Positions 51 to 45,852 of a stretch of 64,000 nucleotides of DNA are shown here, piece after piece. This DNA comes from Clostridia bacterium (GTDB lineage: Bacteria > Bacillota > Clostridia > Oscillospirales > CAG-272). The translations under genes were made by a program, and so were the position numbers. The stretch is taken from NCBI GenBank assembly GCA_017463485.1, contig JAFTPD010000002.1:505-64504 (forward strand), read 5' to 3'. The notes below the pieces were generated by a model. That model had not been told where the DNA came from and ran no database searches. It worked only from the letters and a program-made list of their open reading frames with translations. How positions within the stretch are numbered: the first letter of the stretch is position 1; every line of letters starts with the position of its first letter.

Positions 51-139
51 TGGTGCCGGTGACCGGGCTTGAACCGGTACGATACTTTCGTATCACGGGA
101 TTTTAAGTCCCGGGCGTCTGCCAATTCCGCCACACCGGC
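51..139 (-). tRNA. tRNA-Leu (anticodon UAA), class II with long variable arm, CCA encoded
   Basis: The reverse complement is GCCGGTG-TG-GCGGAATTGGCAGACGC-CCGGGA-CTTAAAA-TCCCG-variable arm TGATACGAAAGTATCGTA-ACCGGTTCAAGCCCGGT-CACCGGC-ACCA. The acceptor stem GCCGGTG/CACCGGC pairs perfectly, and the anticodon loop CT-TAA-AA gives anticodon TAA. Confidence 0.9.
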
Positions 140-41574: not shown

Positions 41575-41649
41575 CAAAATGTCGCTTTCCCGCACCCGAC
41601 TTTGGGTGCGGGGCGGCGGACTCGTATACATACCCGAAAGGAAAACGAC

Positions 41650-44109
41650 ATGCCACAAACACTCGGCGAAAGATATTTAAAAGCAAAAAAAGCCTTGTTC
41701 GACAAGGCTTATTCCAATCTTAACCCCAAGCAGAGGGAAGCGGTGTTTACAATAAACACGCCTCTGCTTATTCTTGCGGGTGCAGGAAGTGGAAAGACAA
41801 CGGTGCTTGTCAAGCGCATAGCCTACATAATCAAATACGGCAACGCATACGCCGCCAACATCATCCCTCGCGGGCTTACCGAGGAGCGTGTTGCGGCACT
41901 TGAAGGCGCGACTTCATTGTCGCGCGGGGAGATTGAGGGTATCCTGCCCGAATTCATCACTGAGTCGTGCCCGCCTTACAATATCCTTGCCATCACCTTT
42001 ACCAATAAAGCGGCGAAGGAGATAAAAACCCGCCTTGCGTCCGAGCTTGGCGACGAGATAATGGCGGCTGATATATGGAGCGGCACGTTCCATTCGGTCT
42101 GCATGCGCATTTTGCGAGTTCACGGAGAGAAGCTGGGCTTTGGCAGGGAATTTACCATTTACGACGCAGACGACACCAAAAAAGCGGTAGCAGCGGCAAT
42201 GAAGCGTTGCAATATCGACGAAAAGCAGTTTCCCGTAAAGAGTATCGTCAATGCTATAAGCCACGCCAAGGACGAGCTGATGACACCTATGGCTTTTGCG
42301 CGAATGGCACAGGGCGACTTCCGACGCGAAAAGATAGCCAAGGTCTACGCCGCGTATCAGGAGGATATGATACGCTCCAACGCCATGGACTTTGACGATA
42401 TTATCGTCAATACCGTGCGCCTGTTTTCGGAGTATCCCGACGTTCTTGCGTACTATCAGAGAAAATTCAAATACGTCTGCGTTGACGAGTATCAGGATAC
42501 CAATATCGCGCAGTTCCGTCTGACCGAGATGCTGGCGGGCGGTCACGATTACATTATGGCGGTGGGCGACGACGACCAGAGTATTTATAAATTCCGCGGT
42601 GCGACGATAGAGAACATTTTGCAGTTCGACAAGGTGTATTCGGACGCCAAGGTCATAAAGTTGGAGCAGAACTACCGCTCTACGCAGACTATTCTGGACG
42701 CGGCAAATAAGGTGATCGCCAACAACGTGGGACGTCGCGGAAAGAATCTATGGACGGATAGCGGCGCTGGCGAGGCTATTACCGTCTGCAAGACGGAGGA
42801 TCAGCTTGGCGAGTCGCGATTTATCGTTGATACGGTTAACTCGCTGATGGCAAGCGGCGGATATACCTACCGCGATTTTGCCGTGCTTTACCGTACCAAT
42901 TCACAGTCGGGAAGCGTGGAGAAGGCATTTGCCAAGGGCGGTGTGCCGTACCGCATGATAGCGGGCACACGCTTCAACGACCGCAAGGAGATACGCGATA
43001 TCGTGGCGTACCTTCAGCTCATAAATAACCGTGCCGATCGCGAGCGGCTGTTGCGTATCATCAACGTCCCTGCGAGAAAAATAGGCGACAAGACCATTGA
43101 GGCGATAAAAATAATTGCCGACGAGATAGGGGAGTCACTCTTTTACGTTATCGACCATGTGGAAAGATATGGCGCGCTCTCCCGCAGTGCCATGACGCTC
43201 CGCGCATTTGCCGACCTCATAAACGAGCTTGCGGAAATGGCAAAAACAGCACCTCTCGGCGACCTGTTTGACGCGCTTGCGGACAAGTCGGGATATATGC
43301 GTATGCTTGAAGAAGGCGGAGAAGCTGAGAAGGAAAGAATAGACAATATTCTCGAATTCAAGTCGGGTATGGTGGAGTATTCCGAGAATACCGACGAGCC
43401 GACACTCACGGGATTCCTTGAGGAAAACGCGCTTGTAGCAGACGTGGATAAATACGACGAGAGTGCAGATGCAGTGGTGCTGATGACGGTACACAGCGCA
43501 AAGGGACTTGAATTTCCCGTAGTATTCATACCCGGTATGGAAGACGGGATTTTCCCCGGTATGCAAAATATCATGGGCGACTCCGAGGATATGGAGGAGG
43601 AGCGCAGGCTTGCCTACGTTGCTCTGACGAGAGCCAAGCGCAAGGTGTATATCATTCATGCAAAATCAAGGCTCTGGTACGGACACACGGTGTATAATCC
43701 GGTGTCGCGCTTTGTCAGTGAGATACCCGAAAAGCTTTGTGACGTAGTGGATAAGACCGCTTCGTCGTGGCGCACGGGCGGTATGTACGGCGGCAGCGGT
43801 ACGTCAGCTCCGCGTACTTATTACAGCGCGGGCAGCGGAATGTCGGCTTATCCTCCCAAAAAGACGGGTGTAGGATACGGCGACAAGATAACTGTCGGAA
43901 AACCGTTGAACGTACCTCCTCAAAATAAGGATGCAAGAGCGCAAATGTTCGCACTCAAAGCGGGCGACAGAGTTTCGCACATCACCTTTGGAGAAGGCGA
44001 GATACTTTCCGCCAAGCGGATGGGGAACGATACTCTCTTTGAGGTAGCGTTTGACCGCGCGGGAACTAAAAAGCTGATGGGAACGTACGCGAAGCTGAAG
44101 AAAATATAA
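41650..44109 (+). CDS. pcrA: ATP-dependent DNA helicase PcrA (UvrD family, SF1)
   Basis: The start is ATG 41650 (MPQTLGERYL...). Motifs: LNPKQREAV, AGAGSGKTTVL, VDEYQDTN, VGDDDQSIYKFRGA, YRS, TVHSAKGLEF, LAYVALTRAK. The C-terminal PcrA tail contains HITFGEGEI. Confidence 0.94.
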   Translation: MPQTLGERYLKAKKALFDKAYSNLNPKQREAVFTINTPLLILAGAGSGKTTVLVKRIAYIIKYGNAYAANIIPRGLTEERVAALEGATSLSRGEIEGILPEFITESCPPYNILAITFTNKAAKEIKTRLASELGDEIMAADIWSGTFHSVCMRILRVHGEKLGFGREFTIYDADDTKKAVAAAMKRCNIDEKQFPVKSIVNAISHAKDELMTPMAFARMAQGDFRREKIAKVYAAYQEDMIRSNAMDFDDIIVNTVRLFSEYPDVLAYYQRKFKYVCVDEYQDTNIAQFRLTEMLAGGHDYIMAVGDDDQSIYKFRGATIENILQFDKVYSDAKVIKLEQNYRSTQTILDAANKVIANNVGRRGKNLWTDSGAGEAITVCKTEDQLGESRFIVDTVNSLMASGGYTYRDFAVLYRTNSQSGSVEKAFAKGGVPYRMIAGTRFNDRKEIRDIVAYLQLINNRADRERLLRIINVPARKIGDKTIEAIKIIADEIGESLFYVIDHVERYGALSRSAMTLRAFADLINELAEMAKTAPLGDLFDALADKSGYMRMLEEGGEAEKERIDNILEFKSGMVEYSENTDEPTLTGFLEENALVADVDKYDESADAVVLMTVHSAKGLEFPVVFIPGMEDGIFPGMQNIMGDSEDMEEERRLAYVALTRAKRKVYIIHAKSRLWYGHTVYNPVSRFVSEIPEKLCDVVDKTASSWRTGGMYGGSGTSAPRTYYSAGSGMSAYPPKKTGVGYGDKITVGKPLNVPPQNKDARAQMFALKAGDRVSHITFGEGEILSAKRMGNDTLFEVAFDRAGTKKLMGTYAKLKKI

Positions 44110-44115
44110 ATTTTA

Positions 44116-44155
44116 TTAAGGGAGAAAACCCACGGTTTTCCCCCTTAATTTTTTT
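44116..44155 (+). terminator. intrinsic terminator of pcrA
   Basis: TTAAGGGAGAAAACC-CAC-GGTTTTCCCCCTTAA followed by TTTTTTT. Confidence 0.85.
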
Positions 44156-44179
44156 GTAAATACCCAAAAAATCTTTTCT

Positions 44180-44375
44180 GCGACCTGTCGGTATAATTTG
44201 TCACAGCGTTTGTGTGATGGCTTTCTGCCCACGAACCAAGCCCAAGGTGGGTGGGATTCCAAAGGGAGGGAGGAATTGAGGAGTGAAATTTCAATTTTGT
44301 AAAAATTGAAATCACGACTCATCCGCCCAACCTTTGGTTACTCTTTGGTTACTTTCTGTTAAGACAGAAAGTAAC
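44180..44375 (+). repeat. direct repeat copy A (~195 bp) containing a 79-nt imperfect hairpin (44259-44337) and tail hairpin H1 (44348-44375)
   Basis: It aligns with 44733-44936. The block 44205-44283 is near-identical to 44759-44838, differing by two substitutions and a 1-nt indel (AACCAAGCCCAAGG vs AATCAAACCCCAAGG). Confidence 0.85.
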
Positions 44376-44385
44376 ATAAATTCCG

Positions 44386-44435
44386 TAATTGTTTTTTATG
44401 TTACTTCTGTATCGACAGAAGTAACCAAGATCGAC
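44386..44435. repeat. left inverted repeat (~50 bp) containing hairpin H2 GTTACTTCTGT-ATCG-ACAGAAGTAAC
   Basis: TAATTGTTTTTTATGTTACTTCTGTATCGACAGAAGTAACCAAGATCGAC is the reverse complement of 44901-44951, with only about 3 differences. Confidence 0.85.
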
Positions 44436-44469
44436 TTAAGAGAGGAAACCCACGGTTTCCTCTCTTAAG
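44435..44469. repeat. perfect 16-bp-stem hairpin, a diverged copy of the pcrA terminator stem-loop without a U-tract
   Basis: CTTAAGAGAGGAAACC-CAC-GGTTTCCTCTCTTAAG resembles TTAAGGGAGAAAACC-CAC-GGTTTTCCCCCTTAA at 44116-44148. The loop context AAACCCACGGTTT is shared, and the stem differences are complementary. Confidence 0.8.
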
Positions 44470-44732
44470 AAACTCACCTTCCTACACGCGCCGCCTTGCC
44501 GCAAGTCTGCGGACAAGGCGTGATTGCGCGCCAAGGTTGCAATACACCCATCTCGCCAAGTTTCCGTCGGAGCGACGGAAACTTGGTCGGTTAGAGTACG
44601 CCTTGCGCAGAAAGTGTTTTTATGGTTATTTAAAAATTGAAAATTAAATTTACAGGGGAAAATTTCAAATCTCTTTCGGCGTTGCTCCCCCGATAAACTA
44701 CCGCTACATCAAGCGTGTCTGATTTCCAATTT

Positions 44733-44936
44733 GCGACCTTTTGGTAATGATTTGTAAGAGCGTTTGTGTGATGGCTTTCTGCCCACGAATCAAACCCCAA
44801 GGTGGGTGGGATTCCAAAGGGAGGGAGGAATTGAGGAGGCAGACCTTAAATTTGAGCTTGCCGAAAATTTGAGGTCAACGACTCATCCTCCCAACCTTTG
44901 GTCGATCTTGGTTACTTCTGTCGATACAGAAGTAAC
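44733..44936 (+). repeat. direct repeat copy B (~204 bp) containing an 88-nt imperfect hairpin (44814-44901) and tail hairpin H3 (44911-44936)
   Basis: See copy A. The basal stem CCAAAGGGAGGGAGGAATTGAGGAG / ACTCATCC(G/T)CCCAACCTTTGG is shared. The apical stem has a different sequence but is still self-complementary. Confidence 0.85.
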
Positions 44937-44951
44937 AGAAAACAACAATTA
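44901..44951. repeat. right inverted repeat (~50 bp) containing hairpin H3
   Basis: It is the reverse complement of 44386-44435. The element core 44388-44949 is flanked by TA on both sides (44386-87 and 44950-51). Confidence 0.85.
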
Positions 44952-44985
44952 TGCTACATTTGTTCACAGAATGTTAATGCTTATA

Positions 44986-44994
44986 TGCTACAAT
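44986..44994 (+). promoter_or_regulatory. extended -10 promoter element (TGcTACAAT) upstream of ogg
   Basis: TGCTACAAT lies about 50 nt upstream of the proposed GTG start. No good -35 is present. Confidence 0.4.
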
Positions 44995-45045
44995 TACGGT
45001 ATACACACGGAGATTAACTCCGAATCTTGGTATGGGGAGAATTCT

Positions 45046-45852
45046 GTGAGCCTTCTTACACTCGAAAATAAAACGCATACGGTCTGCGGTGTGCGGCATT
45101 TCAGTCTTGATAAAATAACCCGAAGCGGACAGGTTTTCCGTTGGTACGAAAAGGAAAACGGAGAGTTTTTGATCTATTCGGGCAAAAGGTGCATCACAGC
45201 AACACAGTGCGGTGATAGCCTTACCGTTTCTGCCGACAGAGATGAATTCGACGGCTATTGGAAGCACTATTTCGCGCTTGACGAGGATTATGACACATAT
45301 TTTGACGGCGTTACGTCGGGAAATGATGCATACGCCGCCGATTGCGCGCACGTGTCCGACGGAATACGCATTCTCAATCAGGACCTTTTTGAAACTATGG
45401 TGTCCTTCGTCATATCGCAAAATAATAATATCCCACGCATCCGCGGATGTATCGAGCGTATCGTCGCTCAAAACGGCGGAGCTTTTCCAACGGCAGACGA
45501 GCTTTTGTCCCTCGACCTATCGGGTTGCGGACTTGGCTATCGCGAAAGTCGAGGATATATGAGAGCGGTGGGCGCGGCTTACAGCCCCGAATTTGAAAGC
45601 TACATACGCTCGCTTGACTACGAGGGAGCAAAAGCGGAGCTGCTCAAAATCAAGGGAATAGGCAATAAGGTTGCCGACTGTATATGCCTTTTCTCCTTGG
45701 GACATAAGGACGCTTTCCCGCGAGATACGCATATCAATGACATAATCGAAAGGGAATACGGCGGAGTCGATCCGTCGGGACGCTGGAATGGGTATGCGGG
45801 TATCGTACAGCAGTGGATATTCTTTGACGAGCTTTTGCGCACGGGACGTTGA
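45046..45852 (+). CDS. ogg: 8-oxoguanine DNA glycosylase / AP lyase (OGG1-type, HhH-GPD family)
   Basis: About 268 aa from GTG 45046, 6 nt after GGGGAG. OGG_N-like N-terminus (FSLDKITRSGQVFRW). HhH-GPD motif LKIKGIGNKVADCICLFSLGHKDAFPRDTHI, with the catalytic Lys and Asp. The upstream part of the 362-aa track ORF runs through repeat copy B and is not credible coding sequence. Confidence 0.8.
   Translation: MSLLTLENKTHTVCGVRHFSLDKITRSGQVFRWYEKENGEFLIYSGKRCITATQCGDSLTVSADRDEFDGYWKHYFALDEDYDTYFDGVTSGNDAYAADCAHVSDGIRILNQDLFETMVSFVISQNNNIPRIRGCIERIVAQNGGAFPTADELLSLDLSGCGLGYRESRGYMRAVGAAYSPEFESYIRSLDYEGAKAELLKIKGIGNKVADCICLFSLGHKDAFPRDTHINDIIEREYGGVDPSGRWNGYAGIVQQWIFFDELLRTGR

Follow-up and report, generated by a model that had tools for sequence, protein, structure and literature searches.

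A hairpin-rich, non-coding dispersed repeat as the probable content of the pcrA-ogg spacer in an uncultured Oscillospiraceae bacterium

Dispersed copies and the pcrA-ogg locus

In the 64,000-nt stretch of DNA from an uncultured Oscillospiraceae bacterium that was analysed here (the window; contig JAFTPD010000002.1 of assembly GCA_017463485.1), a spacer of 936 bp separates the stop codon of pcrA (44109) from the GTG start codon of ogg (45046). The locus raises the question of what this spacer contains. A preliminary description had pointed to a gene-free, hairpin-dense gap with two direct repeats, and had proposed either a structured RNA family or an interspersed palindromic element of the ERIC/RUP/Correia kind. 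The first part of that description agrees with our results, as the longest open reading frame (ORF) within the spacer has 68 aa and the whole 851 nt folds with z-scores of -25 on the plus strand and -14 on the minus strand. The spacer probably consists of two adjacent members of a non-coding, modular, hairpin-rich family of dispersed repeats. Interspersed palindromic repeats have been well studied in Proteobacteria and in a few pathogens, but they have received hardly any attention in uncultured Oscillospiraceae, the dominant members of gut and rumen communities.

The closest database relative of the window organism is the metagenome-assembled genome SIG628 (GCA_015065065.1), whose Ogg protein is 92% identical; the exact Ogg sequence of the window is not on record. 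A scan of 185,579 species, each represented by one genome, was carried out with the base of the long hairpin described below (CCAAAGGGAG-N45-75-CCCAACCTTTGG). Nine loci were obtained, and six of them are contigs of SIG628. The other three, from Lysobacterales (L008), Chloroflexia (L009) and Lentimicrobiaceae (L013), displayed no similarity beyond the pattern and were discarded as chance matches. SIG628 holds at least eight copies at six loci, including one at L007 that is cut by the end of the fetched stretch. In the 64-kb window, blastn and nhmmer detected the family at the pcrA-ogg locus only. All the copies are intergenic and both orientations occur. They are neighboured by housekeeping genes, namely those for PFOR, ribosomal protein L17, PurH, MetH, MTHFR and oligopeptidase F (PepF), and also by that for a Wzy-like protein; three copies are found between convergent genes whose own terminators are retained. 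The proposal of an interspersed palindromic element was supported by copies at five or more other SIG628 loci and by the absence of the element from the same locus in other relatives.

SIG628 has the same composite spacer between pcrA and ogg. In two further relatives (L002 and L003, Ogg 80% identical) the gene order is the same and the pcrA-ogg gaps measure only 14 and 33 nt, and the 936-bp spacer was therefore considered an insertion. It starts 6 nt past the pcrA stop codon, and ogg, which abuts pcrA in the relatives, is now located ~940 bp away. The insertion appears to have occurred in the common ancestor of the window organism and SIG628, or to have reached both lineages. Both neighbours are DNA-repair genes: pcrA (41602-44109) encodes UvrD-helicase, UvrD_C and PcrA tudor domains, while ogg (GTG at 45046 to 45852) encodes a protein of 268 aa with an OGG_N domain. 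The locus would show how a repeat insertion splits a two-gene DNA-repair unit and hands pcrA what looks like a ready-made terminator.

A purely local event was also considered, in which a spacer segment was duplicated in tandem or a protein-coding gene left remnants. Such an origin would fit the adjacent, directly oriented copies, the minus-strand ORFs of 126-136 aa that are open in three paralogues, and the GenBank Ogg of SIG628 (L001:10001-11089, equivalent to window 44764-45852), a 362-aa call with a TTG start inside the repeat. However, copies are present at five other loci, and in most of the other copies indels interrupt the ORF frames. When the 136-aa ORF was compared with 5.8 billion proteins, only two matches were found, both from the same SIG628 loci and with no Pfam domain on record, and the variable sites show no three-base (codon) periodicity. 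The element is non-coding. The 362-aa call is probably an over-extension of ogg from the TTG codon, because both the ribosome-binding site and comparison with relatives indicate a start at the equivalent of window 45046; the element would hence explain an annotation error in a public genome. The preliminary description had itself raised random local duplication and a decayed coding gene as possibilities. Both were rejected, the former in view of the dispersed copies and the latter in view of the missing codon periodicity and of an ORF that has no homologues beyond the same loci, so that a local origin is highly improbable.

Structure of the repeat unit and a possible small RNA

The direct repeats detected by the repeat finder (44193-44266 with 44747-44820, and 44238-44299 with 44793-44854) are spaced by 554-555 nt. 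By blastn, 44179-44380 matches 44732-44941 with 81.7% identity over 213 nt (E 1e-44), in line with the two direct copies about 554 bp apart that had been reported. A 38-nt core of the repeat occurs exactly twice in the window, against 0 occurrences expected. The sequence also confirms the count of two substitutions and one 1-nt indel between 44205-44283 and 44759-44838. The repeat unit, however, had been estimated at ~200 bp, and this value has to be revised: the true unit measures ~560 bp (44386-44950) and is bounded by 47-nt inverted repeats. This full-length unit on the plus strand is copy B. Copy A (44110-44385, plus strand) is a shortened member in which the order is T hairpin, S, H and R1, with neither the left terminal repeat nor the central part of ~234 nt, and it seems to be a deletion derivative of the full unit.

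Copy B shares 79-84% identity over 505-620 nt with the copies at L006, L011, L012 and L014 (blastn, MAFFT and nhmmer). The nhmmer profile of the full element matched copy B with an E value of 1.5e-219, and positions 408-621 of the family profile matched copy A at 44177-44380 (E 2e-64). In its left part, the full unit contains an outer TGTTTTTTAY, an R palindrome, an inner CCAAAG, the T' hairpin and the G+C-rich hairpins C1 and C2. In the right part, A+T-rich DNA is followed by the sigma-70-like motif TTTCCA-16-TATAAT, then by the S region and the long H hairpin, and the unit closes with the right terminal repeat, an inverted version of the left one. In copy B, the terminal inverted repeats were located at 44394-44440, containing the palindrome R2 (44400-44425), and at 44896-44942, containing R3 (44911-44936). 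They are 94% complementary over 47 nt, and blastn extends the match to 44373-44440 versus 44964-44896. The copies at L006, L011a, L012 and L014 end in the same terminal inverted repeats, and the two terminal hairpins have outer and inner flanks that are reverse-complementary to one another.

The R unit is a perfect palindrome of 26-28 nt, GTTACTT(T)CTG-N4/6-CAGAA(A)GTAAC, and three of them are found in the window. R1 (44348-44375; 28 nt, GTTACTTTCTGT-TAAG-ACAGAAAGTAAC) forms the right end of copy A, and the orientation alternates from R1 (forward) to R2 (reverse) and R3 (forward). A short linker of 24 nt (44376-44399) lies between R1 and R2; together, the two palindromes and the linker (44338-44436) fold as one REPIN-like hairpin of ~99 nt (-36.3 kcal/mol, z -8.2). 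The long linker between R2 and R3 is a conserved cargo of ~455 nt. The left-end doublet, consisting of R, a conserved linker of ~24 nt and an inverted R, was observed in four of the five full-length copies. The R stems vary as pairs (CTG/CAG, CCG/CGG and TCG/CGA; GTTAC/GTAAC versus GCTAC/GTAGC). Across ~130 kb of both genomes, R palindromes were detected solely within family elements, and none stood alone.

Just inside the left terminal repeat, the T' hairpin (44435-44469) has a perfect stem of 16 bp (-25.0 kcal/mol, z -7.2). It is present in all full-length copies with compensatory changes, and C1 is likewise conserved in all of them. C1 (44487-44530) is a G+C-rich nested hairpin, GCCTTGCCGCA..TGCGGACAAGGC inside CGCGC..GCGCG (-28.6 kcal/mol, z -3.9), while C2 (44556-44586) is a hairpin of 14 bp, CCAAGTTTCCGTCG-GAG-CGACGGAAACTTGG (-25.9 kcal/mol, z -6.1). 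Both had been described as perfect. This holds for C2, whereas in C1 the GCCTTGCCGCA/TGCGGACAAGGC stem has one bulged A and the outer ACGCGC/GCGCGC pairing is imperfect. At the 8th pair of C2, three paralogues have C-A on the plus strand, equivalent to G-U on the minus strand, and the copy at L011a is repaired to C-G.

The T hairpin of copy A (44116-44148, plus strand) starts 6 nt after the pcrA stop codon and is followed by a TTTTTTT run, the whole feature extending to 44155. It is a copy of the internal T' hairpin: T and T' (44436-44468) are 85% identical with compensatory stem changes, and T is 91-97% identical to the T' hairpins of other family copies. The region spanning it (44112-44160) folds at -17.8 kcal/mol (z -4.3). 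From its sequence, the T hairpin with its T-run looks like an intrinsic terminator of pcrA. A consensus terminator scan did not list it, for which one A-C mismatch in the stem is responsible.

The S region lies 5' of the long hairpin and contains a short CCCAC/GTGGG stem. It was delimited on the plus strand at 44205-44258 in copy A (alignment and RNAalifold, 10 copies) and at 44759-44813 in copy B (alignment, RNAalifold and nhmmer), and it is conserved. The H hairpins that follow, also on the plus strand, have the reported lengths of 79 nt in copy A (44259-44337; -37.8 kcal/mol, z -7.3) and 88 nt in copy B (44814-44901; -44.8 kcal/mol, z -7.4). In the basal stem, copy A alone among 10 copies has an A-G mismatch (alignment columns 112/175), and the G-to-T difference that gives A-T, noted earlier between the two copies, is correct.

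The tops of the H hairpins had been described as conserved in structure and unlike in sequence. Pairing is indeed kept, but the tops can be aligned through compensatory pair changes and an 8-9-nt loop indel, and they represent two family-wide alleles that have been swapped between copies. Type 1 (GTGAAATTTCAATTTTGTAAAAATTGAAATCAC), the top of copy A, is present in three of the ten aligned copies (window A, L006 and L012), while the other seven, with copy B among them, have type 2 (GGCAGACCTTAAATTTGAGCTTGCCGAAAATTTGAGGTCAAC). The orthologous copy A is of type 1 in the window and of type 2 in SIG628, within almost identical flanks, which indicates that the top was replaced since the species split. 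Most simply, the replacement would have occurred by gene conversion from another family member. The alignable tops, the R palindromes, the joint hairpin of R1 and R2, the 47-nt inverted repeat and the recognition of T as a diverged copy of T' are additions to the preliminary description.

The family is modular. The copies truncated at the 5' side (window A and L011b) both retain S, H and R. An optional module of ~100 nt with three hairpins was observed just inside the left end at L006:3528-3633, and in inverted orientation inside the right end at L011:6887-6990 (L011b). Some members of the family may have much longer terminal inverted repeats.

A small-RNA gene family was weighed as an alternative. 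Here the motif TTTCCA-16-TATAAT would drive an RNA of ~190 nt composed of S, H and R, the inverted repeats would be a mere vehicle, and the repeats would be kept for a host or element function, e.g. as regulatory or guide-like RNA. This reading partly overlaps the one preferred here. The motif (10/12) was found by a promoter scan in L006 and L012 and is conserved in sequence and position in the alignment. On the other hand, copy A of the window has the TATAAT hexamer (44192-44197, plus strand) with the -35 part missing, as the copy is truncated just upstream. In copy B (44723-44750, plus strand) the motif reads TTTCCA, 16 nt, TAATGA, with an extra A that degrades the -10 hexamer, and the promoter scan of the window did not list it. 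No copy has a U-tract terminator after R.

The folding data are similarly divided. Three pairs of the H top change on both sides between type 1 and type 2 and keep the pairing. This is not proof of an RNA, because long perfect palindromes can be kept symmetric by template switching at the DNA level without selection on RNA, and because the three covarying pairs represent essentially one event. T-G pairs in the S stem can pair on the plus strand only, but in T, T' and C2 the mismatched positions read C-A on the plus strand and G-U on the minus strand. A strand call from G-U versus A-C mismatches was consequently dropped, the signal being contradictory (S favours the plus strand and T/T'/C2 the minus strand). 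The retention of S-H-R in all truncated copies and the identity of the orthologous element (94-99%, compared with ~70% at neutral sites) would fit an RNA; the between-species conservation, however, peaks in the T'-C part (44350-44650) and not in S-H.

Rfam 15, applied to the whole window at gathering thresholds, listed only a tRNA at 54-139. With E values up to 10, the interval 43900-45200 gave only hairpin-type noise far below the thresholds, with ROOL, GOLLD, raiA and HEARO/omega-RNA among the families covered, in agreement with the earlier view that no named RNA is recognizable. Transcription of a small RNA from the element is possible but unsupported. We regard a small-RNA gene family as unlikely, and the structured RNA proposed as the first alternative in the preliminary description keeps a correspondingly low probability.

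Known repeat systems, mode of spread and conservation

We now return to the reading of the element as a non-coding dispersed repeat. Repetitive extragenic palindromic (REP) sequences, bacterial interspersed mosaic elements (BIMEs) and REP doublets forming hairpins (REPINs) are known from Proteobacteria; examples are the BIMEs of E. coli and the REPINs of Pseudomonas, which are mobilised by the REP-associated tyrosine transposase (RAYT), a Y1 HUH transposase. The element resembles these systems in its 26-28-nt perfect or near-perfect extragenic palindromic units of alternating orientation, separated by short and long conserved linkers. Inverted doublets form one long hairpin, other hairpin motifs are combined with them in a mosaic, and stems show compensatory changes. 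The copies are confined to extragenic DNA, typically downstream of stop codons or in the space that separates convergent genes, and show no target-site duplication.

In contrast to REP/BIME/REPIN elements of 40-150 bp, the unit here has ~560 bp with a cargo of ~455 nt. REP sequences occur in high copy number including solo units, typically more than 100 per genome, whereas no solo palindromes were found in the ~130 kb and the copies apparently number tens at most instead of hundreds. The element resides in a Firmicute (Oscillospiraceae), no GT[AG]G-type 5' tetranucleotide is present and there is no sequence similarity. Up to 10 kb from the window locus, no cognate RAYT (Y1 HUH) gene was detected.

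Transposable elements of the miniature inverted-repeat kind (MITEs) were compared using the criteria of PMC11602168, i.e. terminal inverted repeats of at least 10-15 bp, no coding capacity, dispersed copies, a target-site duplication of 2-10 bp and a parent insertion sequence; in prokaryotes, sizes of 50-800 bp are quoted (PMC11602168). The element has terminal repeats (47 nt, 94%), a size (~560 bp) and dispersed copies as expected for a MITE. Like Correia/CREE of Neisseria, RUP and BOX of Streptococcus pneumoniae and ERIC of enterobacteria, it is non-coding, non-autonomous and intergenic, with terminal inverted repeats and long hairpins. MITEs can bring promoters or terminators and thereby rewire neighbouring genes, a trait that the element would share, and BOX elements are likewise modular and reside in a Firmicute. 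Unlike MITEs, it has no detectable target-site duplication, its terminal repeats are themselves perfect hairpins and no sequence similarity was found; it is also much longer than Correia, RUP and ERIC (~100-160 bp). Among the 11 viral and at least 120 metagenome loci listed in scans for the terminal palindrome, no transposase lay between palindromes or recurred next to them, and a parent insertion sequence sharing these ends was not detected.

A third comparison concerns palindrome-associated transposable elements (PATEs) derived from IS200/IS605 and the omega-RNA loci of TnpB/IscB. These have in common with the element end hairpins conserved in structure, the lack of a target-site duplication and a structured RNA that would exit one end. 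They differ in that the ends here are true inverted repeats with no fixed flanking tetra- or pentanucleotide and no tnpA, tnpB or iscB nearby, and Rfam gave no match to the HEARO or IS605-orfB families.

The element was therefore assigned neither to MITEs nor to REP sequences, because features that define each group were not found (target-site duplication and parent insertion sequence in the former; high-copy solo palindromes and RAYT in the latter). Its architecture is closest to that of BIMEs and REPINs, and its size and terminal inverted repeats resemble those of MITEs. A literature search by sequence string and topic retrieved no description of these elements. It is likely that the family is new and lineage-restricted, while being of a familiar bacterial repeat kind.

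The element itself is, in our assessment, likely to be a lineage-specific, non-autonomous mobile repeat similar to BIMEs, REPINs and MITEs. It would be selfish, and a trans-acting enzyme recognising the R hairpins would carry out its copying. As no target-site duplication was seen, a hairpin-recognising HUH/Y1-type enzyme or a site-specific recombinase is favoured over a cut-and-paste DDE transposase. Copies would persist where harm is small, after stop codons and between terminators, and would exchange sequence by gene conversion, which could explain the differing H top of the orthologous copy A. At the window locus, insertion would have separated ogg from pcrA, and the T hairpin and T-run of the element may now end the pcrA transcript.

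The bounding palindromes could also be read as core sites of a tyrosine recombinase (Xer-like or invertase), in which case the element would be a site-specific recombination module, either an invertible promoter switch or a cassette similar to dif modules. The R unit can be read with arms of 10-11 bp on either side of a 6-bp centre (11-6-11 or 10-6-10), a geometry shared with dif-type sites; the bounding sites are inverted, with reverse-complementary centres in R2 and R3 (TATCGA and TCGATA), and enclose the promoter-like motif. The missing target-site duplication and the 3.4-kb gene cassette at L099, bounded by 68-nt inverted repeats with an R-like palindrome (see below), are compatible with such a module. 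Nevertheless, the arms show perfect symmetry, and in most copies (L006 and L014) the centre at one end is unlike that at the other. The orientation was the same in the three pairs of orthologous or near-identical loci compared (window/SIG628, L146/L012 and L147/L011), so that both orientations were not observed at any locus, though in three comparisons only. Several copies are flanked by convergent 3' ends and would leave a promoter switch with nothing to drive, and no recombinase gene was found within 10 kb. A recombination module is hence quite improbable.

Several observations weigh against a mobile repeat. The empty sites come from relatives too diverged for alignment of the junctions. The copies are old and few: paralogous copies are 80-88% identical across most segments and 64-78% in the terminal repeats, and no pair suggests recent movement. 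A search up to 10 kb from the window locus and next to each copy revealed no transposase, recombinase or RAYT-like gene, and no gene for such an enzyme recurs beside R-type palindromes among the 131 other loci listed. When the ORFs within 600 nt of R-type palindromes were clustered (140 loci, L006-L145), the recurrent ones were spurious ORFs of the repeats and orthologous housekeeping genes; where a locus had two or three palindromes, the genes present were of the housekeeping or defence type and did not include transposases. With six end definitions and symmetric offsets, no consistent target-site duplication was obtained from these few old copies, whose ends are fixed within a few nt, and no fixed flanking tetranucleotide was seen at the element ends. 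Searches of phage and plasmid collections with the spacer (blastn) and of viral contigs with the H-stem core gave no match.

The conservation between species is a further point of this kind. Between the window and SIG628, identity is 67-74% at four-fold degenerate sites in five flanking genes and ~70% in two ordinary spacers, whereas it reaches 93.5% over the whole element, 95.9% in copy B and ~99% in the interval 44350-44650. A selfish, decaying repeat predicts otherwise, unless ~1 kb was imported. The high identity may reflect either strong purifying selection on this copy or a recent exchange of ~1 kb between the lineages by homologous recombination. The block of high identity (~44000-45009, versus L001 9230-10245) extends slightly past the element on both sides, which mildly favours import over selection at this one locus. 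If selection were the cause, the cargo would represent a new non-coding element with a function.

Wider R-palindrome elements and flanking sequences

When the R palindrome alone was used for scanning, the matches listed included seven prophage-like IMG/VR contigs and ~25 contigs from human gut (Clostridia) and other metagenomes, in which it lies within a conserved module of ~165 nt. This module forms four helices, with 96.8% of cells paired and eight pairs that change on both sides. An example is found at L018:461-665, and the module was also observed at L015-L017, L020, L022, L024, L026, L029, L043, L050, L052, L057-L059, L063, L064, L070, L071, L081, L083, L087, L092, L102, L105, L109, L110, L113, L118, L127, L136, L138 and L143. 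Its flanks vary by locus, and in the annotated cases (valS-folC, gyrB-gyrA and U32 peptidase-rex) it is co-oriented with both genes, which are housekeeping genes in an operon-like arrangement. Rfam gave no match for the L018 locus, no description was retrieved by the literature search, and blastn matched one unannotated faecal phage record and no plasmid.

The gut module and the window element have in common the R palindrome and the flank TCTTTG-GTTACTTTCTG..CAGAAAGTAAC. The layout corresponds to S-H-R, with a G-rich run, a long hairpin, 8-10 nt including TCTTTG, and R. The hairpin base CCA(A/G)AGG...CC(T/C)(T/C)TGG is also common to both, the gut form being CCAGAGG.../...CCTCTGG with at least three interchangeable tops. 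The module differs in its single R with no inverted partner and in an extra hairpin of 7 bp. Homology to the window family beyond R was not detected, as the best E value of a covariance model (P1+H) was 2.4 and nhmmer gave E > 3 in both directions. On this comparison, only a shared terminal hairpin and a shared architecture are suggested.

Longer units were observed as well. The segments L027:11578-12091, L086:950-1396 and L038:12714-13502 are non-coding units of 450-800 bp with inverted R-like palindromes and a CCAAAAA inner flank. Each has a hairpin just inside the left end, and L027 and L086 have another before the right end (of the GGGGATTCC type in L086). Their layout is that of the window element, with unrelated interiors. 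L027 and L086 share an internal stretch (..TCTGATCTAG..CAACCAACTCCGCCTGCCGGCC..) that has no Rfam match. The region L038:9850-13600 (assembly ERZ857757) is dense with related palindromes (GTTACTTTTTG.., GGTACTTTTCG.. and GTTCTTTTTGC..) around the genes for RNase HII, UPF0102 and M19 dipeptidase; in this organism the palindrome behaves as a true high-copy REP. At L099:6604-10065, a segment of 3.4 kb encoding a defence-type AAA_21 ATPase, an RloB-like protein and a DNA-alkylation-repair protein lies between 68-nt inverted repeats, each of which holds an R-like palindrome (GTTACTTTTTG..CAAAAAGTAAC). This segment may be a gene cassette carried between R-like ends. No transposase was found in the L027, L086, L038 and L099 elements.

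A broader and doubtful proposal is that the R hairpin marks a widespread superfamily, comprising the 560-bp, 450-800-bp and 165-nt units, in Oscillospirales of gut and rumen and their prophages. It would be served by a hairpin-recognising enzyme, with the cargo (T'-C and S-H) under strong purifying selection as functional structured RNA or single-stranded DNA. If true, this would be a Firmicute counterpart of the REPIN-RAYT partnership. The BIME/REPIN-like build, combined with a large cargo and with a terminal hairpin common to many elements of gut Clostridia and prophages, points to a hairpin-processing enzyme. Repeats of this kind would help in typing strains, in assigning phages to their hosts and in explaining breaks in assemblies.

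Between the element and ogg lies the ogg leader (44951-45045, plus strand), which is outside the repeat family; other copies have unrelated flanks. The interval 44950-45009 is 95% identical to SIG628, and a weak similarity (81% over 37 nt, E 0.12) connects the leader with the region upstream of ogg in a more distant relative (L004/L005). Just outside the element, the leader contains a 12-nt direct repeat, TATGCTACA(T/A)TT, at 44950-44961 and 44984-44995, i.e. 34 nt apart. The part of the leader that bears this repeat is the one with the weak similarity and may be the promoter or operator region of ogg. Finally, the tRNA gene at the left end of the window (54-139, minus strand) has a long variable arm and the anticodon loop CUUAAAA.

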